Shown piece by piece: positions 6,848-41,604 of a DNA stretch of 64,000 nt (position 1 is its first letter; every line of letters starts with the position of its first letter). The translations under genes and the position numbers were made by a program. This stretch comes from Gammaproteobacteria bacterium (lineage in GTDB: Bacteria > Pseudomonadota > Gammaproteobacteria > Chromatiales > Chromatiaceae): NCBI GenBank assembly GCA_021773975.1, contig JAJFJN010000012.1:299-64298 (forward strand), in the 5' to 3' direction. The notes beneath the pieces were generated by a model, which was not told the origin of the DNA, ran no database searches, and worked only from the letters and a program-made list of their open reading frames with translations.

Positions 6848-6848
6848 T

Positions 6849-7103
6849 ATGTCAGATGAAAAAGAAAAGAGCTACTTATTTGACCGGCCGGAAAATGTTG
6901 AACGGCTACTCAAGGGGTTCTATGCCATCTGCATTCTATTGGTGCTGGCCGATTTTGTTCTCCACCGCCACATTGGTTTTGGTTGGGAGGAGATACCGGC
7001 CTTTTACGCCATTTACGGCTTTGCCGCTTGTGTCGTGCTGGTCGTCATCGCAAAGAAGATGCGCAATGTTGTGATGCGGAAGGAAGATTATTACGATGAG
7101 TGA
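6849..7103 (+). CDS. Small 2-TM membrane protein embedded in the mrp operon
   Basis: 84 aa with two hydrophobic helices, tightly packed between two antiporter-like subunit genes. No family recognised. Confidence 0.5.
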   Translation: MSDEKEKSYLFDRPENVERLLKGFYAICILLVLADFVLHRHIGFGWEEIPAFYAIYGFAACVVLVVIAKKMRNVVMRKEDYYDE

Positions 7104-8802: not shown

Positions 8803-8820
8803 GCCTGCGGTCACTGCAAA

Positions 8821-10587
8821 ATGGCATGGGAAGGCTGGTTTACCCTCGGCGTTATCGCCCTCTGTTTTAGTCTGCTGGCTTTAGGTAAGGCATCAGCCGA
8901 CATCATTATGGTCGGTGGCCTGTTGATCCTGCTGCTAGTCGGCATCCTTGATCCACAGGAAGCATTGATCGGCGCAGGCAACGAAGGCGTGGTGACGATA
9001 GGACTGCTCTTTATTGTTGCTGCCGGCCTGCGAGAAACCGGTGCCATTGCCTGGATTGCAGCTGCCATCCTGGGTCATCCAAAGAGCCTTGCGGCAGCTC
9101 AGCTGCGCTTGATGGCTCCAGTGATGGGTATGAGTGCATTTCTCAACAATACCCCTGTTGTTGCGATGATGATTCCAGCCGTCAATGATTGGGCCAGACG
9201 TCTTCAGATATCGGTGTCCAAACTGATGATCCCGCTGAGCTATGCCTCTATTGTTGGTGGCACCCTGACACTGATTGGCACCAGCACCAATCTGGTTGTT
9301 AATGGCCTGCTGATTTCACACACAGGCACCGGCATTGGCATGTGGGAGATTGCCTGGCTGGGTCTGCCTGCACTGCTTATCGTACTGGGTTATACCGTCA
9401 TTGCCAGCCGCTGGTTGCTGCCGGAGCGGGTGCCTGCGATCAGTCTATTCGACAACATGCGTGAATATACGGTGGAGATGGTGGTTGCCGATGATGGCCC
9501 ATTGGTGGGCAAGAGTATTGAAGAGGCAGGGCTGCGTCATCTGCCTGGTATGTTCTTGACCAGTATCGACCGTGATGGGCAATCGATGCTGGCAGTATCG
9601 CCCAAGGAGCAACTACAAGGCAGCGACCGTCTTATTTTTGCTGGGGTGCTTGACTCAGTGGTCGATCTGCAAAAGATCCATGGTTTGAACAGTGCCAACA
9701 ATGAGGCTAGTTGGCTTGACTCACCTCAGCATCAGCGCAATCTGGTTGAGGTGGTGATCTCTGATACCAACCCCTTTGTGGGCAAGAGTATTCGTAAAAG
9801 CCGTTTTCGCAGTCATTACAACGCAGCGGTTATTGCAGTGGCACGCAATGGAGAACGCCTCAATCAAAAACTGGGGGATGTGGTAATTACCGCCGGTGAT
9901 ACTTTGTTGTTGGAAACAACCGAAGGTTTTACCAATACACAGAAGAACTCACGGGACTTCTATCTGGTCAGCCTGCTGGAAAATTCTGGCCCTGTTCGTC
10001 ACGACCGAGCCTGGGTCTCACTTATGATACTGCTGGTTATGGTTGGCAGCGTGAGCTTTGAACTGCTCACTATGTTCAAGGCCTCCTTTCTGGCCGCTGG
10101 TCTTATGGTGCTGACAGGGTGTCTGCCTGGTGGTGTGGCTCGCCGCAGCGTGGTGTGGCAGGTGTTGATCGTAATTGCCGCCGCCATTGGTATTGGGACC
10201 GCCCTCACCAAGACGGGTGCTGCCACAGTGATCGCTGAAGAGCTGGTAGGCCTAGCCCAAGGTGATCCTCTGATGACGCTGGTGATTGTTTACCTCTTAA
10301 CCGTGCTCTGCACGGAGTTGATTACCAATAATGCAGCCGCTGTTTTGATGTTTCCCATTGCACTGACCAGTGCGCAACAGCTTGGTGTAAATCTGCTGCC
10401 TTTTGCTATCGCCATTATGTTTGCTGCCTCTTGTAGCTTTGCCACCCCGATTGGTTATCAAACCAATCTGATGGTTTATGGACCCGGTGGTTATCGCTTT
10501 GGTGATTTTCTGCGTTTTGGATTGCCGTTGACATTTCTGCTTGGCGCAGTGGCGCTGTTGATTATCCCGCAGGTGTGGCCTTTTTGA
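8821..10587 (+). CDS. SLC13/DASS-superfamily permease with two central TrkA-C (RCK C-terminal) domains
   Basis: 588 aa. Multi-TM halves flank two TrkA-C-like segments (PLVGKSIEEAGLRHLPGMFL... and NPFVGKSIRKSRFRSHYNAAVIAV...). Confidence 0.75.
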   Translation: MAWEGWFTLGVIALCFSLLALGKASADIIMVGGLLILLLVGILDPQEALIGAGNEGVVTIGLLFIVAAGLRETGAIAWIAAAILGHPKSLAAAQLRLMAPVMGMSAFLNNTPVVAMMIPAVNDWARRLQISVSKLMIPLSYASIVGGTLTLIGTSTNLVVNGLLISHTGTGIGMWEIAWLGLPALLIVLGYTVIASRWLLPERVPAISLFDNMREYTVEMVVADDGPLVGKSIEEAGLRHLPGMFLTSIDRDGQSMLAVSPKEQLQGSDRLIFAGVLDSVVDLQKIHGLNSANNEASWLDSPQHQRNLVEVVISDTNPFVGKSIRKSRFRSHYNAAVIAVARNGERLNQKLGDVVITAGDTLLLETTEGFTNTQKNSRDFYLVSLLENSGPVRHDRAWVSLMILLVMVGSVSFELLTMFKASFLAAGLMVLTGCLPGGVARRSVVWQVLIVIAAAIGIGTALTKTGAATVIAEELVGLAQGDPLMTLVIVYLLTVLCTELITNNAAAVLMFPIALTSAQQLGVNLLPFAIAIMFAASCSFATPIGYQTNLMVYGPGGYRFGDFLRFGLPLTFLLGAVALLIIPQVWPF

Positions 10588-14702: not shown

Positions 14703-16943
<2,241 letters not shown>

Positions 16944-27493: not shown

Positions 27494-28153
27494 CTACTTC
27501 TTATTATTAGCCACCCAAACCGCTGCTTCTAATCTAGATCGTAAATTCAGCTTTTTTAGCAGGTGTTTTACGTGCACTTTCACTGTTCCTTCTGTTATAT
27601 CCAGCTTACGCGCAATAAGTTTATTACTATAGCCATTAGCAATGAGTTTTAATATCTGCTCTTCTCTTTGCGTAAGCCCGGCTTTTGATGGGGTTTTTGG
27701 TGCAGCATCCTCACGTAAGGCATGCGCCATTAACTCAGTTAGCTTATCGCAAATCACAAACTGACCATTTGCTGCAGTTTGCAGTCGTTCCAAAATATCC
27801 TCCGGCTCCATATCTTTAAGAAGATAACCATCTGCGCCCGCGCGCAATGCTGCAACTACATTTTCTTCATTATCCGATACCGTTAACATAATGACACGTG
27901 AATCGACGTCTGTAGCTTTAATTGCTTCAAGCGTCTCAATGCCACCCATGCCTTTCATGTTCATATCAAGCAAAATCAAATCTGGATTAAGCTTTACCGC
28001 TAATTCTAATCCTTCTTGACCCGACGCAGCCTCCCCCACTAGCGTCAATGAATCTACCAATGAAATAAGGTCAGCAACTCCTTTTCTGAACAAAGGGTGG
28101 TCATCAATTGCTATAATAGTATTTGTTTTTTTATCATTCATCATTAGACTCAT
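27494..28153 (-). CDS. narL: NarL/FixJ-family response regulator (REC plus LuxR-type HTH)
   Basis: 219 aa. The receiver carries DLILLDMNMKGMGG. The C-terminus carries LTQREEQILKLIANGYSNKLIARKLDITEGTVKVHVKHLLKKL. It overlaps the kinase gene by 4 nt. Confidence 0.85.
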   Translation of the reverse strand: MSLMMNDKKTNTIIAIDDHPLFRKGVADLISLVDSLTLVGEAASGQEGLELAVKLNPDLILLDMNMKGMGGIETLEAIKATDVDSRVIMLTVSDNEENVVAALRAGADGYLLKDMEPEDILERLQTAANGQFVICDKLTELMAHALREDAAPKTPSKAGLTQREEQILKLIANGYSNKLIARKLDITEGTVKVHVKHLLKKLNLRSRLEAAVWVANNKK

Positions 28154-30147
28154 TTATTTTGTGCATCTTTTACAACTGCGGTATCTACGATAACGTCTTG
28201 TGAGATCACCTGCTTAAAATCTACGATATTCTTAGCATCTGTTGAAAATTCCAACTTTACTCGTGTTCCACCCTTTTCACGTCGTGATAGCTCAATTTCC
28301 CCCCCGAGCCTACCTGCTCGCTCATTTATTATTGCTAAGCCATAATGATTACGGCGCTGTGCTAACTCTGATATTCCAATACCATCATCCTCAATACTAA
28401 TTGTGACTCGGCAACTATTACTATCAAAAAGCAACTTAACTTGAACGTTTTCTGCTTTCGAATGATTAACTGCATTAGACAATACTTCTCTCACCACCTG
28501 CAGGACATGAATCTCTTGATGTGCATTTAACTGACATTCATCTAATTCATTTTCTAAAGTAATATTTATTTCACTTCGTTTTCGCCAATCTTCAACTGTA
28601 TTCTCTACAGATTGAATCAAACCACTGCCTTCCATTTTAATACGAAAGGTTGTTAACAACTCCCGCAGCTGACGGTACGCTGAGCTAATACCTTCTCGCA
28701 TTTCACCTATAATGATTTGAACTTCCTGCTCTGTATCGGGCTTAGCTATAGTCATATCCAGACGTGTTGCTTGAATTTTCAGATATGACAACGACTGTGC
28801 TAACGAATCATGCAATTCACGTGCAATCACACTGCGCTCCTCCAACAATGCTAAGCGCCTGGATTCTGTAACACGTTGGGTCAGATTCAGTGCCATACCG
28901 ACATGACGGGCAACTGTTTCTAACATTTGTGTTTGTCGCTCTTCTACTCCACCACCAGGCAACACCTCCATAAATAACACACCAACCTGTGCATCTTTAT
29001 CTTTAATAGGAGTCGAGACAAGCTCTACCTCATGATCACCCGTCGTTGCCTTAAATATGTGGGTAGCACCATCAGCGTAACATTCATTACAATTAAGGTG
29101 AGAGCAGACATCAGGGATATCATCTACAGCATCCCTGGTAGAGGCCAACACAAGCTGGCTGGTAAGCGCATTTTTCCCTAAACAAATTGCACCCGGTCCA
29201 AATCCAAGTGGCTTCTCAATATCTTTTAATAGGTTTTCATACGTTGCATCTGACAGTGGAGCCTCACTCAAACGCCTAATCGTGTTATACAATAACTCTA
29301 ACGATTGGTTGCTACGCTCTAAATCAATTGTTTTATCTTTTACCCTTGCTTCTAAGTTCGCATACATCTTAGATAGATCTTCAGACATCTCATTAAAAGA
29401 AGCGCCTAACTGGCCTAATTCATCGTTAGCAATGTAATGAGTTCTAACAGAAAAATCCCCCATCCTTGCACTATTAGCACAAACCAATAACCTATCTAAC
29501 GGTGCCAGCACCTTTCGTGCAAGCAAGATAACGCTAAACAGCGCAGCACACAGCGTTAAAGCAAGAGAGACAATCATAGCCAGCTTCAAACTTTGAATCT
29601 TTGCCTCAGAGGTCTCTTCCAGTAGAGTTACAAAATTATCTATATCAAAAACAAAATCATTTATCACTGAGAGATATTCTTGCCTGACATTACTACGCAG
29701 ACCAGGGGAACTATCACCATATAGATTCCTAAGATCTTCCTTATATTTACGAGATTCAGCATAAGCCAAAAATGTGGGTTTAATCTCGCTGTTCCATCTT
29801 TGACTTAAGCGCCAATATGCATCTTGTAACTTATCCTTAGGGTTAACCGGAAGTGCCTCAACCAGCGCAGGATGAGTAAGACGATAATCAAATTCTAACA
29901 GCTCTGCCTCAATAGCCCGTGCAATCGAAGCGTTCTTACTCCTGATATCCTGATCTAGATCAATAACAGAGAGAATACGAAAGGATTGCATGCGTAAAGT
30001 ACCAGCCTGATTAATAGCACCTGCATCTCCACGAATAATCTCAGTTGTAAATACAGAACTCAACATGCCTACAAATGCCAAGGTTGTGATGGCCGCCATA
30101 GCCATACCAAGCCGCCGTAAGGTGGGCTTTTTATACAACCCAATCAT
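28150..30147 (-). CDS. narX: NarX/NarQ-type sensor histidine kinase
   Basis: 665 aa. The periplasmic domain carries a NarX P-box-like AINQAGTLRMQSFRI between two TM helices. It is followed by HAMP, a central Cys-containing GAF-like module (CSHLNCNEC), HisKA_3 (RELHDSLAQSLS) and HATPase domains. Confidence 0.8.
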   Translation of the reverse strand: MIGLYKKPTLRRLGMAMAAITTLAFVGMLSSVFTTEIIRGDAGAINQAGTLRMQSFRILSVIDLDQDIRSKNASIARAIEAELLEFDYRLTHPALVEALPVNPKDKLQDAYWRLSQRWNSEIKPTFLAYAESRKYKEDLRNLYGDSSPGLRSNVRQEYLSVINDFVFDIDNFVTLLEETSEAKIQSLKLAMIVSLALTLCAALFSVILLARKVLAPLDRLLVCANSARMGDFSVRTHYIANDELGQLGASFNEMSEDLSKMYANLEARVKDKTIDLERSNQSLELLYNTIRRLSEAPLSDATYENLLKDIEKPLGFGPGAICLGKNALTSQLVLASTRDAVDDIPDVCSHLNCNECYADGATHIFKATTGDHEVELVSTPIKDKDAQVGVLFMEVLPGGGVEERQTQMLETVARHVGMALNLTQRVTESRRLALLEERSVIARELHDSLAQSLSYLKIQATRLDMTIAKPDTEQEVQIIIGEMREGISSAYRQLRELLTTFRIKMEGSGLIQSVENTVEDWRKRSEINITLENELDECQLNAHQEIHVLQVVREVLSNAVNHSKAENVQVKLLFDSNSCRVTISIEDDGIGISELAQRRNHYGLAIINERAGRLGGEIELSRREKGGTRVKLEFSTDAKNIVDFKQVISQDVIVDTAVVKDAQNK

Positions 30148-30599: not shown

Positions 30600-30615
30600 T
30601 ACCCATAAAGAGGTA
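30600..30615. promoter_or_regulatory. Candidate NarL/NarP 7-2-7 binding site (TACCCAT-AA-AGAGGTA)
   Basis: Both heptamers fit the NarL consensus TACYYMT; the second reads TACCTCT on the other strand. They are inverted with a 2-bp spacer, 126 bp upstream of the operon ATG. A third near-consensus heptamer, TACCCAA, lies at 30592-30598. Confidence 0.5.
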
Positions 30616-30740: not shown

Positions 30741-31619
30741 ATGTCATCAGAAAATAAACATGAGAGTTCCACTCACCATCTGCGTGAGTATGGAGTTCAA
30801 ACGCCGGGGACAAAGGGTATTCCTGGCAAAAGACGTTACTCAATGGTCATCGACCTCAGGAAATGCATTGGGTGCATGTCCTGTGTAGTAGCTTGCAAAG
30901 CCGAATATGGCGTTCCTCTAGGAGTCTGGCGAACCTGGGTTATGGTCGCAGATAAGGGGAGGTATCCAGATAGCAGACGCATCTTCATGCCTCGCCTGTG
31001 TAATCACTGCGATTACCCAATCTGCGTACGCAACTGCCCCACACAAGCCACCTTCAAACATGCAGAAGGCTTCGTGCTACAACGGTATAACCGTTGTATC
31101 GGATGTCGGACCTGCGTCATAGCCTGTCCATACAACGCCAGGCATTTCCTTCCAGCAAAACGCACCAACAACAACCTTCCCAAACTGGTTGTCGATAAGT
31201 GCACCTTCTGTATCCATAGGGTTAAGAAGGGATTGGTACCTGCATGCGTACAAGCCTGTGTTGGTGGCGCACGCATCTTTGGTGATGTTAACGATCCCAA
31301 GAGCGAAGTAGCAAAACTTACTGCAAAAGAGAAGGTTACAGTACTAAAACCTGAACTAGGCACAAGTCCATCCGTCTACTACATTGGTGGCGACTGGGAG
31401 ATTATGGATGAAACCCATAACTACAAACATCGCTCAGCTCAGCAGAAGGCAGAGTTCAATACCTTTAAACGCAATCATCACGGAGATGCATTCGCTGATA
31501 TCGTTGAAGGTGAGAACACCATGCACCATGTAGGCAAAAACATGTCTGACTTCCTGGCGTCAATACCACACAAGTTCCATGATGTGGTTGCTGCGCTCAA
31601 GAAGCTGCTGTTTGCATAA
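30741..31619 (+). CDS. Four-cluster [4Fe-4S] ferredoxin subunit of a complex iron-sulfur molybdoenzyme (PsrB/DmsB/TtrB-like)
   Basis: Four Cys groups are present: CIGCMSCVVAC, CNHCDYPICVRNCP, CIGCRTCVIACP and CTFC...ACVQAC. There is no signal peptide. A C-terminal extension of ~80 aa is His-rich. Confidence 0.85.
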   Translation: MSSENKHESSTHHLREYGVQTPGTKGIPGKRRYSMVIDLRKCIGCMSCVVACKAEYGVPLGVWRTWVMVADKGRYPDSRRIFMPRLCNHCDYPICVRNCPTQATFKHAEGFVLQRYNRCIGCRTCVIACPYNARHFLPAKRTNNNLPKLVVDKCTFCIHRVKKGLVPACVQACVGGARIFGDVNDPKSEVAKLTAKEKVTVLKPELGTSPSVYYIGGDWEIMDETHNYKHRSAQQKAEFNTFKRNHHGDAFADIVEGENTMHHVGKNMSDFLASIPHKFHDVVAALKKLLFA

Positions 31620-31631
31620 GGGGGGGCAACA

Positions 31632-32537
31632 ATGGAAACCTTAATTACATATAACGCCGTCCACCACAATCCGTGGGGGACACCCATTACCATTTACTTC
31701 TGGCTGGTTGGCGCCAGTGCCGGTTCATTTGTACTCTCCGCTTTTGGCTGGGTATTCGGCATCAAACGCTACAAACCACTAGCTCTGAGCGCATCAGTAT
31801 TGGCTATTGGCATGCTGATGATCGTTCCAGTGCTGCTGATTTGGGATCTGGGTAAACCATTCAGGTTTATCTACCTCATGCTACCAGGATACTGGCACGG
31901 CACGGCTCCCATGGCCTGGGGTTCTCTGCTGATCTTAAGCTACCCAGTCTCGATGTTTGTCTATACCTACTTTGTCATTAAAAATGACCAAAAATGGGCG
32001 AAAATAATAGGCATCATCGCTATTGTTCTAGCGCTCTCTACACACTGGTATACCGGTGTTGTTATGGAGCTGAACCCTGGCCGCTACATCAACCATACAC
32101 CGCTTGCTCCACTGTTATTTTTAACAGGTGCATTTATATCGGGTATCGGCTTGATGATCCTAGTGCTCTGGATCAAGAACTTCTTTATGAGTGAGGAGAA
32201 GAAGATCAAGTGGGCGCTTATGGAAGAGATGGCTCAATATATGATGTATGGCATCGTATTTGACTGCTTCCTGCTCTTTCTCGACTTCATGCAAACACAG
32301 TACGGAACCGCAAGCGAAAATATAGGGCATCATGAAGTATTGATGAATATTTTCTTCACTCCGTACATAATGCTTGAGACTGTTATCGGCCTGCTTCTTC
32401 CACTAGTTATTCTGTGTTCACCACTCAAACGCACAAGACTTGGCGTATATGGCGCCTCCCTCTTGGTCGCTGGCGGTGTATATGGCATGCGTATCTGGTG
32501 GGTTATGGGCGGCCAATACATGCAGTCCTTCTATTGA
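31632..32537 (+). CDS. NrfD/PsrC-type integral membrane quinone-interacting subunit
   Basis: 301 aa with about 8 TM helices, lying between the FeS and molybdopterin subunit genes. SD GGGGGG is upstream. Confidence 0.85.
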   Translation: METLITYNAVHHNPWGTPITIYFWLVGASAGSFVLSAFGWVFGIKRYKPLALSASVLAIGMLMIVPVLLIWDLGKPFRFIYLMLPGYWHGTAPMAWGSLLILSYPVSMFVYTYFVIKNDQKWAKIIGIIAIVLALSTHWYTGVVMELNPGRYINHTPLAPLLFLTGAFISGIGLMILVLWIKNFFMSEEKKIKWALMEEMAQYMMYGIVFDCFLLFLDFMQTQYGTASENIGHHEVLMNIFFTPYIMLETVIGLLLPLVILCSPLKRTRLGVYGASLLVAGGVYGMRIWWVMGGQYMQSFY

Positions 32538-32553
32538 TTTGGAGAATAGAATA

Positions 32554-34902
32554 ATGTCAAAAATCAACAGACGAGACTTCTTAAAAGCAGGCGCAGTTGC
32601 AACTACCGCAGCAGCAGTTCCCGGTGTGGGATCAGCTATGGAGCTAAAACTCGGTGGCGCCGACTTTCATCAAATCAGGACCTTTCATGAGCGCAAAAAG
32701 ACACCATATCTTTGCACCATGTGTCCCTATTTTGATGGCGGATTCTGCTACGAAGAAGCCGGTGAAATTGTTAAGGTCGAGGGCAACCCTGACCATATCG
32801 CATCCCGCGGTAAATTCTGTACCAAAGGACTAGCATCATTCTTCGGCGCATCTGACCCCGACAGAATCCTCGCTCCTATGAAACGCTCAGGTCCACGTGG
32901 CTCAGGCCAATGGAAAGAGATCAGCTGGGATGAAGCCATCGCTGAGGTTTCTTCAAAGGTACAAGCCGCTGTCGATGCCAATCCAGACAGCGTTGTCCTA
33001 AACGAAGGCGCCTTCAAAGAGGGTGGCACAACCCGTTTTATGGATACACTGGGTTCAAGCTCAGTCATCCGTAGTCGGGTTCCATCCATCAGCAGCGTGG
33101 CTAAACAGGCGGTGCTTAAAAAGACCTTTGGTGTGGACTCCACACTGCCGGACTTTGAAAACACCAAGTATGTCCTAAACTTCGGCGAAAACATTATTGA
33201 GACAGCCCTTCCATTTGCTCAACGTCTCACAGATGGCATCGTCAACAACCGCTTGAAGCTTGTCACCTTTGACGTGCGTATGTCACACACTGCAGGAAGA
33301 AGTAGTGAATGGATACCTGTATTTCCAGGTAGTGACGGTATTATCGCACTGGCTATGGCCAATGTGATCATGGAAAAAAATCTGGCAAATGTTGACTTTA
33401 TAAATAGCTGGACTAATACCACTGCAAGTGAGTTGGCTCAGCAATTGAAAGCCTACACACCAGCCAAGGCTCAAAAGGCGAGTGGTGTCTCAGCAAAGGA
33501 TATCAAACGTCTTGCCATTGAGTTTGCCAAAAGCAAACCAGCAATAGTCGTTAGTCAAAATGGCCTGAGCTTCCATAAAGGTGGTGTAGATGCAGAAGCA
33601 GCAGCTCAGCTTCTGACCATCATAACTGGCAATATTGATATTGAAGGTGGTAACTGTCTGCCACGCCAGTTTGATATCGCTTCAATCCAACCCGCTCCTG
33701 CTGCTTCAGGCAGTGCCTCACGCCAGCTGAACCACACCTTTCCATTTGAGGTAAAAGGCGGCAAACGTAAGGTACAGGTAATGTTCAACCATATGAGCAA
33801 TCCAGCCTACTCATCTCCTGCAGCAAGCGTCTGGCGCGATGTGCTAAAAGAAGAGAGCCTGATTCCATATCTGGTTGATTTCAGCCCCTTCATGAGTGAA
33901 ACATCTGCATTGGCAGATATCATCCTTCCTGATGTGGTTCCAACAGAGCGGCATGATGTTGGCAGCAGTCCAACAGCACTGCACCCATGGCTCACCAAGA
34001 CCATCCCTGGTGTTAAAGCTCGAGGCCAGGCACAGGATGTTCGTGAAACCCTGAAAAAGATTGTCGAAACCATCGATGCAGATGGTAGCCGTGGCATGAA
34101 AGAGTTTTGGTCCTTTAAAAATGCCAAAGACTGGGTCAAACAAGAGGTGGCTGGTATCGGGCTGGATAAAAAAGCTCTCAAAGCACTCGAAAAAGGTGTT
34201 TATCCGGCCTACGGTAAGATTGACCCCAACACGCGAAAGATTGTCAAAAAAGGCGAGCCTATCCCTGCTGATTACAAAACCTACGAATCAGCTGGATTTG
34301 CAACACCCTCTGGCAAGGTTGAGGTCTCTACACCAACATGGACAGAAAACTCACGACTCTCTAACATTAAGTCAAATGAGTTTGTTTTAACCACCTTCAA
34401 GGTGAGCTATCAAAGCCTCTCTCGCACATCCAATCTGAAATTATTGTCAGAGTTATGGCATGCCAATCCACTATGGATCAATAAAGAAATTGCTCTAAAA
34501 CTGGGAATCGGCGATGGCGAACTGGTTAGAGTTAAGAGCGAGGTGGGTTACCTGGTAACTAAAGCCTGGCTGACTCAGGGCATTCATCCTCAGGTCATCG
34601 GGTTCTCTACCTCTGTAGGGCGCTCTGCCTATGGTCGTGTTGCTCAAGCTGATCCTACTGCAAAAACACCACTTGCAGATGACTCACAGGCAGATGAGGA
34701 TATTCTTGCCAACCTCTGGTGGAGAGATGGTGGTATCAACCCCAACGACATCATCCCACTAGCCATTGATCCAGCATCTGGAGCACAGGCCTGGAATGAT
34801 ACGGTGGTAACGATCTCACCTTCAGAATCAGGCGACAAATATGGTGACATCAAAGTCGATAACGCCAAACATGAAGCCATATATAAGAGACAAATGGGTT
34901 AA
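32554..34902 (+). CDS. Tat-exported molybdopterin (bis-MGD) oxidoreductase-type catalytic subunit, substrate unknown
   Basis: The start is set at the ATG at 32554 (SD GGAGA 9 nt upstream), giving the twin-arginine signal MSKINRRDFLKAGAVATTAAAVPG. An N-terminal FeS motif CTMCPYFDGGFC-x23-C is present. Typical CISM segments occur (GNPDHIASRGKFCTKG, KEISWDEA). 782 aa. Confidence 0.85.
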   Translation: MSKINRRDFLKAGAVATTAAAVPGVGSAMELKLGGADFHQIRTFHERKKTPYLCTMCPYFDGGFCYEEAGEIVKVEGNPDHIASRGKFCTKGLASFFGASDPDRILAPMKRSGPRGSGQWKEISWDEAIAEVSSKVQAAVDANPDSVVLNEGAFKEGGTTRFMDTLGSSSVIRSRVPSISSVAKQAVLKKTFGVDSTLPDFENTKYVLNFGENIIETALPFAQRLTDGIVNNRLKLVTFDVRMSHTAGRSSEWIPVFPGSDGIIALAMANVIMEKNLANVDFINSWTNTTASELAQQLKAYTPAKAQKASGVSAKDIKRLAIEFAKSKPAIVVSQNGLSFHKGGVDAEAAAQLLTIITGNIDIEGGNCLPRQFDIASIQPAPAASGSASRQLNHTFPFEVKGGKRKVQVMFNHMSNPAYSSPAASVWRDVLKEESLIPYLVDFSPFMSETSALADIILPDVVPTERHDVGSSPTALHPWLTKTIPGVKARGQAQDVRETLKKIVETIDADGSRGMKEFWSFKNAKDWVKQEVAGIGLDKKALKALEKGVYPAYGKIDPNTRKIVKKGEPIPADYKTYESAGFATPSGKVEVSTPTWTENSRLSNIKSNEFVLTTFKVSYQSLSRTSNLKLLSELWHANPLWINKEIALKLGIGDGELVRVKSEVGYLVTKAWLTQGIHPQVIGFSTSVGRSAYGRVAQADPTAKTPLADDSQADEDILANLWWRDGGINPNDIIPLAIDPASGAQAWNDTVVTISPSESGDKYGDIKVDNAKHEAIYKRQMG

Positions 34903-34943
34903 CCCTGGTCTCTTAAATAGATACGATAACGGAGGATGGAAGA

Positions 34944-35609
34944 TTGAAGACAACAACTAAAGCCATGCTTTTGATCATTGGTGCAATCGTCCTGGTTCTG
35001 CTCTTTTCTGCTCTGAGCTGTACCAGTGATCGATTCCAACGAATCAGCGCATGCACCGTATGCCATGAAATATTTGTTGATTATGACGAATACAAACCCA
35101 TCGGCATCGCAAGTGAAGAGATTGAAGACTACAAACCAAGAGAAGTCTTTGAGCCCGGTGCATTCGACGTAACAGTTGGCTGCGCAGAGTGTCATGCCTA
35201 CCCTTACGAGGAGTACCGTGAATCACCTCACTATGACAATGAGCTTGAGGTACGTCCTGGCTGCGTTGGCTGCCACGAACCACACAGCGTACGTGAGATC
35301 CTGCACTGGAAGTTTATTTACCTGAACCAAGGTGTTGTAGGAGAAAGCCCATTCCATGCTGTCTCTAACAGCTTGCGCGATATCGAGATGTGGGAAGAGG
35401 AGCTTCGACCTAAAATGGCTGCAAAAGTACGTCAGCAAATGGTTGAAGAGAAAAGTGAAAAGTGCCAGGTCTGCCATAAGACTGAAAGTGAGTGGTGGCA
35501 GGATATAGGCCAGCACAAAACCATGAAGGAAAAAGGCGTCTCCTGCATCAACTGCCACTACAACCTTGTTCACGCAGAGGTTCCATGGCCAGAGATGGAA
35601 GAGGAGTAA
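34944..35609 (+). CDS. Membrane-anchored NapC/NirT-family cytochrome c with five haem motifs
   Basis: TTG start 7 nt after SD GGAGGA, and an N-terminal TM helix. Five CXXCH motifs: CTVCH, CAECH, CVGCH, CQVCH and CINCH. The last four align with the NapC pattern (C..CH..YxEY...HY, C..CH.PH, C..CH, CI.CH....H). Confidence 0.8.
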   Translation: MKTTTKAMLLIIGAIVLVLLFSALSCTSDRFQRISACTVCHEIFVDYDEYKPIGIASEEIEDYKPREVFEPGAFDVTVGCAECHAYPYEEYRESPHYDNELEVRPGCVGCHEPHSVREILHWKFIYLNQGVVGESPFHAVSNSLRDIEMWEEELRPKMAAKVRQQMVEEKSEKCQVCHKTESEWWQDIGQHKTMKEKGVSCINCHYNLVHAEVPWPEMEEE

Positions 35610-35775
35610 CCACTAAATGTGTAGCCTAGCTGTGGCTATGAACTTATCCATAGCTGGGTTACTCTAAAGCTCTATTCATCATAGATACCTTATGCTGAAT
35701 ATAGTATTAACCAGCGGGGGCTTACCCCTAACAACTTGTATTTCTTCGAACTATCAAGTATCCGTGGAGGAAACC

Positions 35776-36168
35776 ATGAAGCGATTGAAAAAGAGTATCA
35801 ACATAGCAGCAGCAATTGCAGTAGCTTTAACTATGGGCTTAACTACCGGCCTTGCTGTCGCAGCTGACTGCGATGATGAAGATGCCGTCAAAACTGTACA
35901 GAAAAAGGTCTACAAAAAGAGTTGTAAAAAATGCCATGGTTCCAAAGGCAACGGCAAAGGTCCAGGTGCTAAAGGCATGGATCCTGCGCCACCTGATTGG
36001 ACTGCTGGCACAGAAAAATCCGATGATGATCTTTACCAGATCATTATGGAAGGCAGCAAAGACACCGAAATGAAGGGTTGGAAAGCTGGTGTCGCTAAAG
36101 CAGGTAAAGAGGTCTCTGAAGATGAAGCGCATACTCTGGTATGCATCGTCCATGGCTTCAAAAAATAA
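35776..36168 (+). CDS. Periplasmic monohaem class I c-type cytochrome
   Basis: Start set at the ATG at 35776 (SD GGAGG 5 nt upstream). The signal peptide reads ...GLAVAA. A single CKKCH is present, with a Met-containing segment downstream (IIMEGSKDTEMKGW). Confidence 0.75.
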   Translation: MKRLKKSINIAAAIAVALTMGLTTGLAVAADCDDEDAVKTVQKKVYKKSCKKCHGSKGNGKGPGAKGMDPAPPDWTAGTEKSDDDLYQIIMEGSKDTEMKGWKAGVAKAGKEVSEDEAHTLVCIVHGFKK

Positions 36169-36180
36169 TTAGCCACAATA

Positions 36181-36214
36181 ACATTCAAGGGGGCTTTAAA
36201 GCCCCCTTGAATGT
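36181..36214. repeat. 34-nt perfect palindrome (17-bp arms, no spacer) between the monohaem and first hexahaem genes
   Basis: ACATTCAAGGGGGCTTT/AAAGCCCCCTTGAATGT, read directly. It starts 13 nt after the cytochrome c stop and ends 36 nt before the next ATG. It is followed by only a weak T tract (TTGC). Confidence 0.75.
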
Positions 36215-36250
36215 TTGCACCATAATAAAATTATCCGGGAGGGTAGAGTA

Positions 36251-37264
36251 ATGCTGAATAAGCGTAGCACATGGCTGCTGTCGGTAATGCTGACTGCAAG
36301 CCTATTCTTGTTTACAGGTGCAGTACATTCTGCAGCAAAAGCAGCGCCGGCACCGGCCCCTAAAGCAGCGGCACCCGCTGCTCCCGCAGTAGATGACGAC
36401 ACCGTAAATCTCGTATATGGCGATATCGTCATGACCAGAACCAGAGAAGGTATGGAAGAGGGCGAAGTAGAAGCTGTCGTGTTTCCACACTGGTTCCACC
36501 GAATTCGTTTCCGCTGCAAGGTCTGCCATGAAGATACCTTTGTAACCAACAAAGGCGAAAATATTGTCGACATGGATCAGATCAGTGCTGGCGAGAAATG
36601 TGGCATGTGCCATGATGGCTCCGTTGCATGGGACCCACTTGAGTGCGAAAACTGCCACTACTATCCAATGGAACAGCTAGATGCTGAAGCAGCGCCACCA
36701 CCTGAAGAGACCAACCCTGCCAACCTGCTATTCGCTGGTCGTGGCGGAAAGATAGCTGGCAAAGGCGATCGTCGTAAACCATCAGGTTCTGCCTTCAAAT
36801 GGGGCGGCGGCTGGCAACCACGTGCTTTCTCCATGGCGGGTCTTCCAAAAGATAAATATGGTCTCGTAGATTGGATCAAGATCACCAAAAACGGCATGCT
36901 TCTACCAAAGGGTTCAATCGATCCAGAAGCCCCACTGTATGAATCTCCTGTTCACTATGAATTTGATGCGGACGGTGAAGAGGACATCGAAGACATGGTG
37001 ATCAAAGTAAAGAGCAAGAGCATTGCTGAAGTGCTCTTTCCTCACACCTTGCACACTTGGTGGCTAAACTGTAAAAGCTGTCATCCACACCGTTTTGTCC
37101 GTACCGCGGGTGATACCCCAATGACCATGAGAGAGATGGCCAAAGGCAAGTACTGCGGCGAGTGTCACGGTAAAGTCGCATTCCCGCTTGAGGATTGCGG
37201 TAAATGCCACAACAGAGAGAAAGTTGCCGCATGCAAAGCAAGCGATAACTGCACATTTGACTAA
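36251..37264 (+). CDS. Periplasmic hexahaem cytochrome built from two c7-type trihaem domains
   Basis: Start at the ATG at 36251 (SD GGGAGGG). Signal peptide, then an Ala/Pro-rich linker (AAKAAPAPAPKAAAPAAPA). Two units of the pattern FPHxxH..C..CH...M....G..CG.CH.G..A....C..CH are present, giving CKVCH, CGMCH, CENCH, CKSCH, CGECH and CGKCH. Confidence 0.8.
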   Translation: MLNKRSTWLLSVMLTASLFLFTGAVHSAAKAAPAPAPKAAAPAAPAVDDDTVNLVYGDIVMTRTREGMEEGEVEAVVFPHWFHRIRFRCKVCHEDTFVTNKGENIVDMDQISAGEKCGMCHDGSVAWDPLECENCHYYPMEQLDAEAAPPPEETNPANLLFAGRGGKIAGKGDRRKPSGSAFKWGGGWQPRAFSMAGLPKDKYGLVDWIKITKNGMLLPKGSIDPEAPLYESPVHYEFDADGEEDIEDMVIKVKSKSIAEVLFPHTLHTWWLNCKSCHPHRFVRTAGDTPMTMREMAKGKYCGECHGKVAFPLEDCGKCHNREKVAACKASDNCTFD

Positions 37265-37294
37265 ATTGGCATAGTAAACGTAGTGGGAGTGGTC

Positions 37295-38491
37295 ATGATG
37301 AATAAAATATTGAGATGTATAACCATCGCCTTGTTCTTATTCTCATGTACCACTCCTTTTGCTTTTGCCGAGGAGAGAGTTCTTCCCAAAAAGATGACAC
37401 CTGCCAAGTTGGAAAAGTCAGTCCATCGCCAGCTTAAATATATTGATAAACGCCTTCTTGCAGGTAAAAGTGCCGATCAAATCCTAAATAGTGGAAACGA
37501 TAAAGCCATATTCATCCTGAATGAAAGCAAGAAAAAGCGCGATATTATTGCCAAACAGATCGAAGAAGGAGAGATGGAACCAGCCTATTGGGCATTAAAA
37601 GATCTTGGCAATGAACTTCGTGCTGCCTCAAAACTTGTACGCGCAAAAAACGTATCCGCAAAAAAGATAAAGGATGACCTAGACCTAGCAAAAATTAAAA
37701 GTGATGCATACGAAGAACGCGCCAAGCAACGCGGCATTCATGATGGTAGCGGTGGCAAAGAGGCGCACGACCTATTTGAACAAGCTGAAGAAAAGCGCAA
37801 AGAAGCCCGCCAACTTGAAAAAAACAAGAAGTATAAAGAATCCACCAGCGCCTATCTCAGCTCAACTGAATTTATAAAAAAAGCCATTGCCACATCAAAA
37901 CGGCAAGGATATAGCAGCAGCAAAATCAATAAAGAAGAAAAAAGAGTACTGCCTAAAGGGATGACGCCAGAAAAATTGAAAAAATCCGTAATCAGGCAAT
38001 TCAAATATATAGACACCCGCCAGCTTTCAGATAAAAGTCACCAAAAAATAAAAGATAGCCAGAATAGTGAAGCTATAACCATTTTTAACCGGGGACGTAA
38101 ACGCATTAACACTATTGCAAGCAAGATTGATGAAGAGCAGTATGAAGAGGCTTATTGGGCGCTACAAAAACTTGCCAGCTCCTTAAAAGACGCCATGAAA
38201 CTAGCTCTAGCTAAAAAAACTGAAGCTAAAAACGACAAGAACGAAATGGATAGTGCTCGCATCACAAGTGATGCCTACCTCGAACGTGCAAGACAGAGAG
38301 GCATTCATGAAGGCAAAGGTGGTGCCGAAGCCCTGGAGCTTTTTAAACGCGCAGAAGCTGAGCGCACTGATGCCATCAACGCACAATCAAAAGAACAATA
38401 TAAATGGGCATCAAAAGGCTACCAGCTTTCAACTGAATTCCTAAAGAAATCCATTACATCAGCAAAAGAGTGGCAGAAATCCAACGAATAA
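37295..38491 (+). CDS. Secreted helical protein made of two tandem ~185-aa repeats, unknown function
   Basis: The signal peptide MMNKILRCITIALFLFSCTTPFAFA has a possible AFA/E cleavage site or LFSC lipobox. The halves starting at nt 37370 and 37934 align end to end (RVLPKKMTPAKLEKSV../RVLPKGMTPEKLKKSV.., AYWALKDL/AYWALQKL, SDAYEERAKQRGIHDG/SDAYLERARQRGIHEG, LSSTEFIKKAI/LSTEFLKKSI). Confidence 0.7.
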   Translation: MMNKILRCITIALFLFSCTTPFAFAEERVLPKKMTPAKLEKSVHRQLKYIDKRLLAGKSADQILNSGNDKAIFILNESKKKRDIIAKQIEEGEMEPAYWALKDLGNELRAASKLVRAKNVSAKKIKDDLDLAKIKSDAYEERAKQRGIHDGSGGKEAHDLFEQAEEKRKEARQLEKNKKYKESTSAYLSSTEFIKKAIATSKRQGYSSSKINKEEKRVLPKGMTPEKLKKSVIRQFKYIDTRQLSDKSHQKIKDSQNSEAITIFNRGRKRINTIASKIDEEQYEEAYWALQKLASSLKDAMKLALAKKTEAKNDKNEMDSARITSDAYLERARQRGIHEGKGGAEALELFKRAEAERTDAINAQSKEQYKWASKGYQLSTEFLKKSITSAKEWQKSNE

Positions 38492-38563
38492 ATCACATCG
38501 AAGAGGCATTAAAAAACATACATTGACCATGGCAAATCCTGATTCACTGCGCGAGTCCACTGC

Positions 38564-39748
38564 ATGAAGCAACTCAAGTTACTTCATGCATTACTGTGGC
38601 TTTTTACTGCCCTGCCCTTCACCCTATTTCTTTCAACAGCAAGCTATGCTGAAGACACACCTTTCCGCATTAATTTCGTTACGAACTATAAGTCATTTCA
38701 ATTCAAAGCACAGGAAGAACTCATAAAAAGTAGCAAGGCAATCATGCCTGGTGAAATAGAAGCGCTTATTAACGATGCAATGTCGGCAGAAATCAGCCTA
38801 GGGCAAAAAATGTTTATGCTGGATGCTGCCAATGCTATGGCCAGCGGTTACAACCACTATCATGGTGGGGGGAAAAAATTACTTCGCAAAATCAACAAAC
38901 TCATAAAAGAAGAGCTAGAAAAAGAGAAAGCAAAAAATGCAGAATTAATGAAGTGGAATGATGAAGAGCGTTTTCTTGGTAACTTTGTCATGAAAACCCG
39001 TGAAAAAGAGATGGCCGAAAAAGGACTCGCTCCTGTCATCTACCCTCATTGGGTGCATCGTATCTGGTTTGAATGCAAAGTCTGTCACCAAGACATCTTT
39101 ATTATGAAGCGGTGGCGTAATGACATCACCCAAGCAAAAATTGAAGCCGGACAGCAATGCGGAAAATGCCACAATGGTGAACTTGCCTTTGGCGTTAAAG
39201 ATAACTGTGACCGCTGTCACCTCGCAGGAAAGCCAGAAGCTGACAAACTACATAATGCAAAGCGTGTTGACCATAAGGCTATAAAAGAAGTTGCTAAAAA
39301 AGTAGGTGCCGAATGGAATTTTGACAAACTTCCCAACGGCCAGCTTCCTGTCGATCGCTTTGGATTTATCGATTGGTTAAATATGAAAAAAGTGGGGGTA
39401 TTCAAACCAATACACTCGCTAAATGAAAATTATAAACCTGAAACCAGGGACAATATAATTCTCTTTGAATCTAAAAGTAAGGCGAAAAATGTTCTTTTTA
39501 GCCACGACGTACATTCAAGCTGGATCAAATGCTCATCCTGCCATCCTGAAGTTTTTACTAAAACATTAACCAACAATGTAAAAATGGTCAGGATGTCAAA
39601 GGGACAGTACTGCGGCCACTGCCACGGCAAGGTCTCTTTTACATTTGCAGACTGCACACGCTGTCATATGCAGGAAAAAGGAGTCATGGTTGACGGCGCC
39701 CTACTTCATAAAGGAAAACCTAAAAAGAAGAAAAAGAAGAAACCCTAA
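38564..39748 (+). CDS. Periplasmic hexahaem cytochrome: N-terminal helical domain plus two c7-type trihaem domains and a poly-Lys tail
   Basis: Signal peptide ending SYA/E. Six motifs: CKVCH, CGKCH, CDRCH, CSSCH, CGHCH and CTRCH. The C-terminus reads KGKPKKKKKKKP. Confidence 0.8.
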   Translation: MKQLKLLHALLWLFTALPFTLFLSTASYAEDTPFRINFVTNYKSFQFKAQEELIKSSKAIMPGEIEALINDAMSAEISLGQKMFMLDAANAMASGYNHYHGGGKKLLRKINKLIKEELEKEKAKNAELMKWNDEERFLGNFVMKTREKEMAEKGLAPVIYPHWVHRIWFECKVCHQDIFIMKRWRNDITQAKIEAGQQCGKCHNGELAFGVKDNCDRCHLAGKPEADKLHNAKRVDHKAIKEVAKKVGAEWNFDKLPNGQLPVDRFGFIDWLNMKKVGVFKPIHSLNENYKPETRDNIILFESKSKAKNVLFSHDVHSSWIKCSSCHPEVFTKTLTNNVKMVRMSKGQYCGHCHGKVSFTFADCTRCHMQEKGVMVDGALLHKGKPKKKKKKKP

Positions 39749-39772
39749 ATTTCACACAACGAGGTCATTATT

Positions 39773-40195
39773 ATGAGCGACACAATCAACCATCCAGAAG
39801 ACATCCGCTTCTACAAAAAACTTATACGACTAACTGACCAACAACTTGCATCGATCCATAAGAATCTTGCAAGAGATGCTAGTTTCTTCCATAAACATCT
39901 ATTTCTATTTCGAAATGTTCTTTTCAAAAAAACCATTCTTAAACTGCTAACTCAGAAAGAAGCTCGGGTCGATGAAAAAGAAGCACTTAATGAAATGATG
40001 GCCGAACTAAAGTTTATAGAAGCAGATAATAATGAATGGAAAACGCATGGCAAAGATGAGATTGATTACATTCGGATAATGGTTCATGGTTTGCGTGATA
40101 TCTCAGGTGAAGAAGTTAAAGAAGAAACCGAAACAAAAGGAGAGAAAAAAGCAAGCAAGCTCACATACCGGCTCAAGATCAACGAATGTAGTTAA
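39773..40195 (+). CDS. Hypothetical protein without a signal peptide inside the cytochrome operon
   Basis: 140 aa, SD GAGGT upstream, no Cys-rich or haem motif, acidic/basic helical C-terminus. No family recognised. Confidence 0.5.
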   Translation: MSDTINHPEDIRFYKKLIRLTDQQLASIHKNLARDASFFHKHLFLFRNVLFKKTILKLLTQKEARVDEKEALNEMMAELKFIEADNNEWKTHGKDEIDYIRIMVHGLRDISGEEVKEETETKGEKKASKLTYRLKINECS

Positions 40196-40227
40196 GTAAC
40201 GCTAACAAACAAATATTCAAGCATTTT

Positions 40228-41181
40228 ATGCTACATGCCACAAAATTCCTGTTTAGTTGCCTAATCCTATTATCAGCTAATGCCTACGCTGAATATGGCG
40301 ACATCATCTTAAACAGAACAGCTGATGCCATGCGTGAGGCAGAGGTTGATGATGTAGTCTTTCCCCATTGGTTCCATCGTATACGTTTTCGTTGCAGTGT
40401 ATGCCATGAAAATATATTTAAAATAAAAGCTGGCTCGAATGAAATTTCAATGTCTACCATCACAGAAGACAAACAAGCTTGCGGCGTATGCCATGATGGA
40501 CTGGTTGCTTGGGAACCACTTGAATGTGAGCGCTGCCACGCACTAGAAGAGGGCTGGAGTTCTGGTGCTATTCAGCATTCCATCCGAGAAGATGAAAAAA
40601 AGAACATTTTACTTGGAATTGTTGGAACAGTTGCCAAGCCCTACTCAAAATTCATGGAAATTGGCACGGGCTGGCATCCTTTGGCTCTAGCTAAAAGTGG
40701 GTTACCACTCGACAAATATGGCCTTGTAAACTGGGCCGATGCCGTACGCAAAAAAATAGTTAACCCACTATGGAGCCTCAACCCAGAAGATGATATTTCA
40801 GAGCACGAGCTAAGAGATACAAATATTCTATTTACAGCTAAAGGAGATAGCATGCCTGATGTTATCTTCCCGCATGACATCCATAGCTATTGGCTAGAAT
40901 GTAAAATTTGTCACGGCACACAAGATGGCCCTATGTTTATTAAAGAATTAGGAGCCAATAATGTAACCATGATGGAAATTGGCCAGGGAAAATGGTGTGC
41001 CAGATGTCATGACAAAATTGCATTCCCCATAAGCGATTGCAATCGCTGCCATAACCACCCAAAGGGCAAACCAATTTCCAATAGCGTATTAATACGCCCT
41101 CTTAAGGTAGCTCCACCCCCTACTCTTCCCCCCATTGATGAACCTGCACAGCAAAATTCTGTTGATAGCGATTTTTTCTAG
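40228..41181 (+). CDS. Periplasmic hexahaem cytochrome (two c7-type domains), paralogue of 36251-37264
   Basis: Signal peptide ending AYA/E. Six motifs: CSVCH, CGVCH, CERCH, CKICH, CARCH and CNRCH. It shares VVFPHWFHRIRFRC.VCHE with the first paralogue. The C-terminus is Pro-rich (KVAPPPTLPPIDEPAQ). Confidence 0.8.
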   Translation: MLHATKFLFSCLILLSANAYAEYGDIILNRTADAMREAEVDDVVFPHWFHRIRFRCSVCHENIFKIKAGSNEISMSTITEDKQACGVCHDGLVAWEPLECERCHALEEGWSSGAIQHSIREDEKKNILLGIVGTVAKPYSKFMEIGTGWHPLALAKSGLPLDKYGLVNWADAVRKKIVNPLWSLNPEDDISEHELRDTNILFTAKGDSMPDVIFPHDIHSYWLECKICHGTQDGPMFIKELGANNVTMMEIGQGKWCARCHDKIAFPISDCNRCHNHPKGKPISNSVLIRPLKVAPPPTLPPIDEPAQQNSVDSDFF

Positions 41182-41259
41182 ATCAAAAAGTACAAAAGCC
41201 ATACAATGTCCCGCTTATAATCATCCAACAGCCATCTTTAGTTACGAGAAATACACATA

Positions 41260-41604
41260 ATGACCAGAGTATTACAGTCCATAGCGCTTTTCGTAGCTTT
41301 AACTACCCAAGCATTAGCAATTGATACAATTAACATTATCTTTGACTCAAAGGTAAGTAGTATGAAAGAAGCGGGCTTAGGAGCTGTCACATATCCGCAT
41401 AAGTTACACGAAGAACTCTATCAGTGTGATGATTGCCACCCAAGAATATTCATCGAAAAAAAGGGCGGGAATGACGTCAATATGCAAAAAAACATGACTG
41501 AACAATATTGTGGTTTTTCAGGGTGTCACAATAGCGCATACGCTTTTCCATTATATCTTTGTGACTACTGCCATGAGGTTTTACCAACTGCAGGTAAGAA
41601 ATAG
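41260..41604 (+). CDS. Periplasmic single-domain c7-type trihaem cytochrome
   Basis: 114 aa with a signal peptide ending ALA/I. The pattern is VTYPHKLHEELYQCDDCH ... YCGFSGCH ... CDYCH. The middle site is CX4CH rather than CXXCH. Confidence 0.75.
   Translation: MTRVLQSIALFVALTTQALAIDTINIIFDSKVSSMKEAGLGAVTYPHKLHEELYQCDDCHPRIFIEKKGGNDVNMQKNMTEQYCGFSGCHNSAYAFPLYLCDYCHEVLPTAGKK

Follow-up and report, generated by a model that had tools for sequence, protein, structure and literature searches.

The 64,000-nt stretch of contig JAJFJN010000012.1 from a Gammaproteobacteria bacterium (assembly GCA_021773975.1), referred to below as the window, includes an operon for a FeS protein, an NrfD-type membrane protein, a molybdopterin-family (Mo-like) protein, a pentahaem cytochrome of NapC/NirT ancestry and a monohaem cytochrome c. 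With a probability of roughly 0.55, the products form a PsrABC-derived complex that links the quinone pool to cytochrome c by electron transfer and is analogous to alternative complex III (ACIII), Qrc and Cbc4. The complex would descend from a PsrABC-type molybdoenzyme that gave up its catalytic site. Its physiological role would be in nitrate/nitrite respiration, with supply of the cd1 nitrite reductase NirS in most lineages. A literature search found no description of a FeS-NrfD-Mo-like-pentahaem module.

The five core genes lie on the + strand at the 5' end of a run of co-directional genes that extends from 30741 to 41604. The first encodes a PsrB-like four-cluster FeS protein of 292 aa (30741..31619) and precedes position 31632, at which an earlier reading of the DNA, made without database searches (the sequence-only reading), had started. 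It is followed by genes for an NrfD/PsrC-type integral membrane subunit of 301 aa (31632..32537; PF03916) that has no cofactor motifs, a 782-aa Mo-like subunit exported by twin-arginine translocation (TAT) (32554..34902; PF00384, PF01568 and PF10518), the membrane-anchored pentahaem cytochrome of 221 aa (34944..35609; PF03264), and a secreted monohaem class I cytochrome c with a CKKCH motif (35776..36168; PF00034). The gene content and cofactor features listed in the sequence-only reading were all recovered by Pfam and NCBIfam profile searches of the window proteins and by a motif scan. When the NCBIfam bit scores were read against equivalog cut-offs, none of the five core proteins reached a cut-off apart from the FeS protein, which is borderline for DsrO (203.6 bits, cut-off 200). 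The score for TtrB among the core operon proteins was 214.7 bits against a cut-off of 416.

The homologue search revealed more than 100 homologues of the Mo-like protein at 54–96% identity, all with generic names only, in Sedimenticola and Polarisedimenticolaceae, Halobeggiatoa, Marithrix, Thioploca, Arenicellales, Halieaceae, Rhodospirillaceae and Magnetococcales. Clade A denotes 49 distinct related loci from genome and metagenome contigs, the window's lineage included. Where enough sequence was available, the Mo-like gene of clade A is directly followed by the pentahaem gene in 40 of 40 loci, including the window and the nirS-less locus L050, and directly preceded by the FeS and NrfD genes in 40 of 41. 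The sole exception, L078 (4209-9893), carries an in-frame FeS::NrfD deletion by which ~100 N-terminal residues of FeS are fused to 13 C-terminal residues of NrfD, while the Mo-like and pentahaem genes are intact. The adjoining nirS is split into two open reading frames, and L078 is a decaying copy. The pentahaem proteins form a tight subfamily of 132 detectable members, every one with five haems; the contigs that encode them have members of the Mo-like family as well, and they were found beside the Mo-like subunit only. Given this synteny and the tight pentahaem subfamily, the FeS, NrfD, Mo-like and pentahaem genes constitute one module and not a chance neighbourhood.

In L050, from Halobeggiatoa, a gene for a 23S-rRNA-intervening-sequence protein (PF05635; 7540-7893) is inserted between the NrfD and Mo-like genes, and neither nirS, cytochrome c nor c7 genes are located nearby.

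The best solved relative of the Mo-like subunit by sequence is Thermus PsrA (E 3.3e-33), and its score for PhsA is 253.8 bits against a cut-off of 694. The Mo-ligand Cys173 of PsrA is replaced by Ile179, which is flanked by Ser178 and Ser180, and His145 and Arg332 are replaced by Gly152 and Gly337, respectively. The canonical Mo-ligand column of the family alignment is occupied by S, N, G or C. The nearest relatives that bear Cys hold it in the segment 'NH-TS[IV]C-ESSKK'.

Mo-like proteins from all loci, ActB and QrcB not being included, were aligned with MAFFT and compared by neighbour-joining, a distance method, with 200 bootstraps. Clades A, B and C were recovered in 200, 199 and 200 replicates, respectively, the grouping A+C in 194 and A+B+C in 200. 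Clade A (54–96% Mo-like identity to the window) has lost the Mo-ligand Cys, keeps the ligands of the FS0 cluster and is always accompanied by the pentahaem gene. Clade B (38–49%; NrfD 25–31%) keeps FS0 and the Mo-ligand Cys together with the Arg, and usually has no pentahaem gene. Clade C (35–43%) has lost the Mo-ligand Cys and all FS0 Cys residues, the FS0 ligand loop being deleted, and always includes a pentahaem protein with five haems. The operon of clade C is organised as in clade A (FeS 52–59%, NrfD 39–50% and pentahaem 32–39% identity, and a monohaem cytochrome c), and nirS adjoins the module in L100 and L105. Among 239 positions conserved in clade B, 133 are kept in both A and C, 22 only in A, 40 only in C, and 44 are lost in both. 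The FS0 ligands belong to the 22 positions kept only in A, and the 44 lost positions include H174, C180, Y335, R336, H620, Q622 and R624. From these alignments, clades B, A and C would form a decay series that leads from a Cys-ligated enzyme through a ligand-less form with FS0 to a cofactor-less protein.

Clade D (L117, L119, L121-L122, L125, L127 and L129-L132) consists of Psr-like alpha subunits at 35–38% identity. These have a canonical C-x2-C-x3-C FS0 motif and no Cys at the Mo-ligand position. FeS and NrfD genes are upstream, no pentahaem gene is present, and the PhsA score of 414.7 bits is below the cut-off.

In lineages other than the Sedimenticola-like one, nirS and one or two genes for monohaem cytochromes flank the module (in Arenicellales, Rhodospirillaceae, Magnetococcales, Halieaceae and others). 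These cytochromes are homologues of the monohaem cytochrome c of the window, which is 32–47% identical to those adjoining nirS in L048 and L049. The module of L134 lies within a complete nir operon in the order nirS-cytochrome c-FeS-NrfD-Mo-pentahaem-nirE-nirC-nirF-nirD/L/G/H-nirJ-nirN, and the arrangement in L049 resembles it. Both flanks were available for 19 clade A loci, of which six include nirS, 12 a c7 cluster and one neither; a monohaem cytochrome c gene is present in 18 of the 19. The window represents the c7 context type. In L063 (9161-12561), nirS and c7-type hexahaem genes are both found 3' of the module; this is the only such locus seen, and it links the two context types.

Two regulatory genes are divergent from the operon, on the - strand. 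One encodes a NarL-type response regulator (27494..28153; Response_reg and GerE in Pfam) that exceeds the NarL equivalog cut-off (321.9 bits, cut-off 250). The other encodes a NarX/NarQ-like histidine kinase, a putative nitrate/nitrite sensor (28150..30147; PilJ, HAMP, HisKA_3 and HATPase_c) that is below the cut-offs for NarQ (414.7 against 553 bits) and NarX (383.5 against 578 bits), NarX being matched over its full length. The kinase contains a P-box-like segment, GDAGAINQAGTLRMQSFRI, which presumably corresponds to the P-box of NarX. The same kinase pairing was found in L052, L053, L054, L056 and L083. Upstream of the FeS gene, at 30600..30615 (unstranded), lies a perfect 7-2-7 inverted pair of NarL-type heptamers, TACCCATAAAGAGGTA, which is the sole match of the pattern TACYYMTNNAKRRGTA in the 64 kb window; none of 100 shuffled controls gave a match. 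The 7-2-7 consensus is that of E. coli NarL, and the site is a predicted one. Similar palindromes are equally far from the start codon (-141 to -150) in L003, L004, L052, L056 and L094. The NarXL-type regulators and the predicted NarL-type box would tie the operon of the window to nitrate/nitrite.

The FeS subunit has no signal peptide and contains 16 Cys residues in four CxxCxxCxxxC-type ferredoxin motifs. All 16 were found in the window protein and in each of the clade A and clade C members that were examined. Its best solved relatives are PsrB (2vpw_B, E 4.9e-50) and ArrB (E 7.5e-48). In both clade A and clade C the subunit carries a C-terminal extension of ~70 residues, which clades B and D either lack or have in a shorter form. 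The extension occurs together with the pentahaem cytochrome and is a candidate docking element. The NrfD subunit matches PF03916 (E 1.6e-31) from residue 11 to residue 296 on profile positions 7-310 of 313. A hydropathy scan flags six segments, and a total of about eight transmembrane helices is based on reading of the sequence and on the full-length Pfam match. Sequence and profile searches of the PDB with this subunit gave no significant match. NrfD identity across clade A is 65–100%, and 45% in L080/L081, the outliers with 54% Mo-like identity.

The pentahaem cytochrome scores 89.5 bits for PF03264 (cut-off 24.1). One hydrophobic helix at the N-terminus (residues 8-26) precedes five CXXCH motifs, namely CTVCH37, CAECH80, CVGCH107, CQVCH174 and CINCH201. 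In the Pfam alignment, residues 80-212 are placed on profile positions 39-171. Since the match starts with residue 80 at position 39, CAECH80 corresponds to the canonical haem 1, and CTVCH37 is extra. The extra motif follows the helix after 11 residues, as compared with 54 residues for CAECH80. This alignment bears out the observation, made already in the sequence-only reading, of an additional CXXCH (CTVCH) after the transmembrane helix and hence of five haems. All five motifs and H96, H114, H138, H191 and H210 are invariant or nearly so across 33 homologues, and all haems are probably bis-His ligated. Lipoprotein anchoring was considered and rejected, as Cys26 is not conserved; the N-terminus is therefore a membrane anchor and not a lipobox.

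Comparison of the pentahaem protein with curated subfamilies gave scores of 47.1 bits for napC_nirT (cut-off 310.6), 52.9 for TorC (478.2) and 28.6 for NrfH (134.2). Sequence and profile searches of the PDB gave no significant match, and no ActA chain was matched. The profile comparison proposed in the sequence-only reading thus yielded a NapC/NirT domain, but neither assignment to NapC, TorC or NrfH nor a match to ActA. The protein belongs to a subfamily of its own, found only beside the Mo-like subunit.

In the proposed mechanism, the FeS, NrfD, Mo-like, pentahaem and monohaem products would form one periplasm-facing membrane complex. The 8-helix NrfD subunit would exchange electrons with the quinone pool, and the four [4Fe-4S] clusters of the FeS subunit would relay them. 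Electrons would then exit, or enter, by the five bis-His haems of the pentahaem subunit, and the soluble monohaem cytochrome c would carry them on, to NirS where the module is linked to nirS. The Mo-like subunit would be mainly a TAT-export vehicle and scaffold for the FeS protein. It probably persists because the FeS protein, having no signal of its own, would need a TAT-bearing partner and a scaffold. Flow from quinol to cytochrome is favoured where NirS is the acceptor, and the reverse direction may apply with c7 partners, as in Qrc. In the window's lineage, the complex would be paired with c7-type hexahaem cytochromes and be under NarX/NarL-type control. Electron relay is the simplest function, given that the operon, the cytochromes and the nirS linkage are kept while the Mo site decays. 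Rather than being a second quinol dehydrogenase, the NapC-type protein most likely acts as a wire.

The suggestion of the sequence-only reading that the core is a quinol:cytochrome c machine rather than a classical reductase gains comparative support from the loss of the active site, from clade C, from the separate pentahaem subfamily confined to the side of the Mo-like subunit and from the nirS linkage, but not from the retention of FS0 in the window's own clade. The latter is the first of several observations that weigh against an electron-relay complex. The FS0-type ligands C54, C57, D61 (replaced by Cys in a few members) and C89, as well as K91 and G92, are invariant across clade A, although decay, as seen in clade C, would be the expected fate of an FS0 cluster that has no relay target. 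The motif C-x2-C-x3-D-x27-C is also present in clade B, which is Cys-ligated and presumably catalytic. As the Cys-ligated relatives share C-x2-C-x3-D, the Asp is a genuine FS0 ligand position. The loops of the former active site have gained conserved residues, R173, S174 and N336 (and also R175), which could make up an active site of another kind. The AlphaFold2 (AF2) model of the Mo-like subunit (pLDDT 76) has its best structural matches in PsrA, Fdh and ArrA, and no ActB chain is among the top 50. The AF2 model of the pentahaem protein (pLDDT 57.7) is too poor for use and gave 0 Foldseek matches. The extra haem retains the canonical 'helix-CXXCHE' context, with which the pentahaem protein alone could still oxidise quinol. 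Finally, nirS is not in the window, and no denitrification genes were found in the rest of it.

Some of these data would be accounted for if the Mo-like subunit were a working Mo/W-bis(pyranopterin guanine dinucleotide) enzyme with a remodelled site that has no protein metal ligand, acting for example on a nitrogen or sulfur oxyanion. A Mo site without a protein ligand is present in arsenite oxidase. By way of FS0 and the four-cluster subunit, the site would then be connected with the quinone pool, via NrfD, as well as with a haem branch of pentahaem, cytochrome c and either NirS or c7 cytochromes. The FS0 ligand set common to clades A and B, the newly conserved loop residues and the fold nearest to catalytic subunits are all in favour of such an enzyme, and the nirS and NarXL context would fit an N-oxyanion substrate. 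However, S, N, G and C are all accepted at the ligand position, and the 44 positions conserved in clade B and lost in clade A are lost in the FS0-less clade C as well. Moreover, clade C retains the operon and the nirS link with no route to a Mo site. The conservation of the Mo-like subunit was considered as an argument for catalysis and dropped: the ratio of Mo-like to FeS divergence is 1.67 in clade A and 1.55 in clade C, and clade C is hence equally constrained without FS0. No dedicated chaperone gene was seen in the gene lists, and no Moco riboswitch was found in the whole window or the promoter region, the latter result being uninformative. On balance, a catalytic Mo-like subunit is regarded as less likely than an electron-relay complex, of which it is the main rival.

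NirT, encoded by nirSTBM of Pseudomonas stutzeri, is the presumed electron donor to the cd1 nitrite reductase NirS. Like the pentahaem protein, it is an anchored NapC/NirT-type cytochrome encoded beside nirS and monohaem cytochromes. The window protein differs in having five haems, with an inserted haem segment of ~43 residues, and its family is always encoded with FeS, NrfD and Mo-like partners. By this likeness, the operon might be thought to specify two independent systems, i.e. an ordinary thiosulfate/polysulfide-type reductase in which FeS, NrfD and Mo subunits have their own quinol dehydrogenase, and a NirT-type dehydrogenase that feeds cytochrome c and NirS. The helix-CXXCHE context of the extra haem is consistent with this, as are published annotations. 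Homologues from orange Guaymas Beggiatoaceae were annotated as thiosulfate reductase subunits (PMC6449678), and a gene of 'Ca. Venteria ishoeyi' that has a nirS copy on either side was called nirT, its neighbours not being commented on (PMC5728499); we infer that this nirT is the same pentahaem. However, the pentahaem gene adjoins the Mo-like gene even where nirS is absent, in L050 and in the window, and the catalytic residues of Psr/Phs are missing, in line with the low PhsA score. In addition, pentahaem, FeS extension and ligand loss co-occur phylogenetically. Two separate systems are thus improbable.

The electron-relay complex that we favour shares its periplasm-facing three-subunit core with PsrABC/PhsABC (Thermus PsrABC, PDB 2vpw). 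This core comprises a TAT-exported alpha subunit, a signal-less beta subunit with four [4Fe-4S] clusters and an 8-helix NrfD/PsrC gamma subunit. PsrABC provides the best sequence and fold matches for the alpha and beta subunits of the window. The window module departs from PsrABC in several respects: it does not conserve Cys173, His145 and Arg332, uses Asp as the third FS0 ligand, has its genes in the order B-C-A, carries a C-terminal extension on the beta subunit, and includes the pentahaem and monohaem cytochromes in addition. The context of the family is denitrification and not sulfur reduction.

As pointed out in the sequence-only reading, the inventory of FeS, Mo-like, NrfD-like, helix-anchored pentahaem and monohaem proteins resembles that of ACIII (PMC5928083), and the haem counts agree with those of ActA/ActE; however, this match is superficial, and a divergent, unfused member of the ACIII family proper is very improbable, as the FeS protein is PsrB-like (E 5e-50, as compared with 1e-19 to 1e-23 for ActB chains) and its 16 Cys fit four [4Fe-4S] clusters, whereas the membrane-proximal FeS1 cluster of ACIII is [3Fe-4S], the single NrfD subunit has ~8 helices in place of the 10 helices each of ActC and ActF, no second NrfD or ActD-like gene was found in the operon or related loci, whereas ACIII has ActD, and the nearest relatives are Cys-ligated Psr-like enzymes. 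Furthermore, ActB fuses the Mo-like B1 and FeS B2 modules. In the window the two modules are not fused, in agreement with the sequence-only reading, and the NrfD gene separates the FeS gene from the Mo-like gene. The monohaem ActE is a lipoprotein, and the monohaem cytochrome of the window has no lipobox.

ACIII and Qrc are nevertheless instructive as analogues. Both are derived from complex iron–sulfur molybdoenzymes (CISM). In each, a Mo-like subunit that lost its catalytic role is combined with quinone subunits of the NrfD type, a FeS module with four clusters and a multihaem cytochrome, to which ACIII adds a monohaem one. The membrane-proximal cluster of ACIII is the point from which the haem wire branches off, and ActB1 has no cofactor (PMC5928083); QrcB is likewise without cofactors (PMC13059093). 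The Mo-like subunit of clade C matches this cofactor-less state, whereas clade A keeps the FS0 ligands. As in ACIII, the NrfD subunits of Qrc have 10 helices. The cytochromes of both systems belong to other families than the pentahaem protein, that of Qrc, a menaquinone reductase, being the hexahaem QrcA, and the window scores for QrcB (168.8 bits against 440) and QrcC (127.9 against 400) are far below the cut-offs. The similarity to QrcB was considered as a specific relationship and dropped, as catalytic relatives score equal or higher. Judged from these comparisons and from the tree without ActB and QrcB, the origin of the module from Psr-like enzymes is apparently independent of ACIII and Qrc. 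Two further leads were set aside: the PSRLC3 literature concerns complexes of Chlorobi and not the window family, and the Uet/ACIII locus of Tenderiales contains a genuine ACIII and a different c7 cluster.

An architectural parallel to an anchored NapC/NirT cytochrome combined with FeS and membrane subunits is Cbc4 of Geobacter sulfurreducens (CbcS/CbcT/CbcU), in which a cytochrome of the NapC/NirT type occurs together with a 4x[4Fe-4S] protein and an integral membrane subunit (bioRxiv 10.1101/2025.04.14.648717). Its cytochrome is a tetrahaem protein with all haems bis-His ligated and a linker after the anchor, and it is proposed to take electrons from the FeS protein and to donate them to PpcA, a c7 triheme cytochrome, Cbc4 being a proposed quinol:cytochrome c oxidoreductase (bioRxiv 10.1101/2025.04.14.648717). 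The window module shares the three components and has c7 neighbours. Cbc4 differs in having no Mo-like subunit, in the four haems of CbcS as compared with five, and in serving metal reduction and not denitrification; the two are likened by architecture and not by sequence. In the sequence-only reading, NrfD- and NapC-type proteins were each seen as normally the sole quinol dehydrogenase of a system. Both are indeed encoded in the operon, but the two are not always exclusive (bioRxiv 10.1101/2025.04.14.648717). Hence, the paradox of two quinol modules has a precedent in Cbc4. A Ferrigenium preprint describes an 'ACIII-like' complex of NrfD, FeS and hexahaem proteins with induction under nitrate-reducing conditions (bioRxiv 10.64898/2026.01.22.701106). 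It is conceptually related to the window module and differs in having no Mo-like subunit. NapC-containing variants are not mentioned in a review of NrfD proteins (PMC8076601).

Downstream of the monohaem cytochrome c gene, the + strand run continues with a c7 cluster comprising three genes for hexahaem double-c7 cytochromes (36215-37264, 38564-39748 and 40228-41181), two for non-haem proteins (37283-38491 and 39773-40195) and one for a trihaem c7 cytochrome, recognised by its haem motif count (41260-41604). Each hexahaem protein has two matches to the c(7)-type triheme domain TIGR04257 (NCBIfam). No intrinsic terminator-like site was found on the + strand from the cytochrome c gene to 41604. 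The cluster is also kept in Sedimenticola- and Polarisedimenticolaceae-like loci.

The first non-haem product (37283-38491) is a secreted protein of 402 aa with two repeats of ~190 residues, each including RVLPK.MTP.KL.KSV..Q.KYID; it has no family match and is 51–84% identical to its counterparts in related c7 clusters. The second hexahaem protein ends in a poly-lysine C-terminal tail, KGKPKKKKKKKP (39700-39748). In the trihaem protein, the middle haem motif is CX4CH (CGFSGCH) and is flanked by two ordinary CXXCH motifs. Further away, the regions 2554-10587 and 14703-16934 include genes for several Proton_antipo_M (Mrp/NADH-dehydrogenase-like) subunits, a CitMHS/TrkA-C transporter and a monomeric isocitrate dehydrogenase, which are ordinary housekeeping genes unrelated to the operon.

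The route by which electrons reach cd1 nitrite reductase is assumed to consist of bc1 with small cytochromes, or else of NirT in a few species. If the interpretation as an electron-relay complex is correct, the NrfD-FeS-pentahaem complex in nir operons would be a new branch point in the electron transport of denitrification. We tentatively suggest, at somewhat less than even odds, that clades A and C are a third and independent case, beside ACIII and Qrc, in which a Psr-type molybdoenzyme was converted to a redox relay, with the window's clade as an intermediate that has lost the active site and kept FS0. In marine sulfur-oxidising and magnetotactic bacteria, the module would then carry electrons from quinol to cd1 nitrite reductase independently of bc1, possibly with conservation of energy, and in Sedimenticola-like lineages it would have been re-wired to c7 multihaem cytochromes. 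The three-clade series would show stepwise a change from molybdoenzyme to scaffold that is merely inferred for ACIII and Qrc. The genes are at present labelled as thiosulfate/polysulfide reductase or as selenocysteine-containing dehydrogenase, by which reconstructions of sulfur-cycle metabolism would be misled. In abundant marine sulfur oxidisers and magnetotactic bacteria, which carry the nir-embedded module, the new branch point would have an effect on energy yield and on the turnover of nitrite and NO in sediments and at vents.

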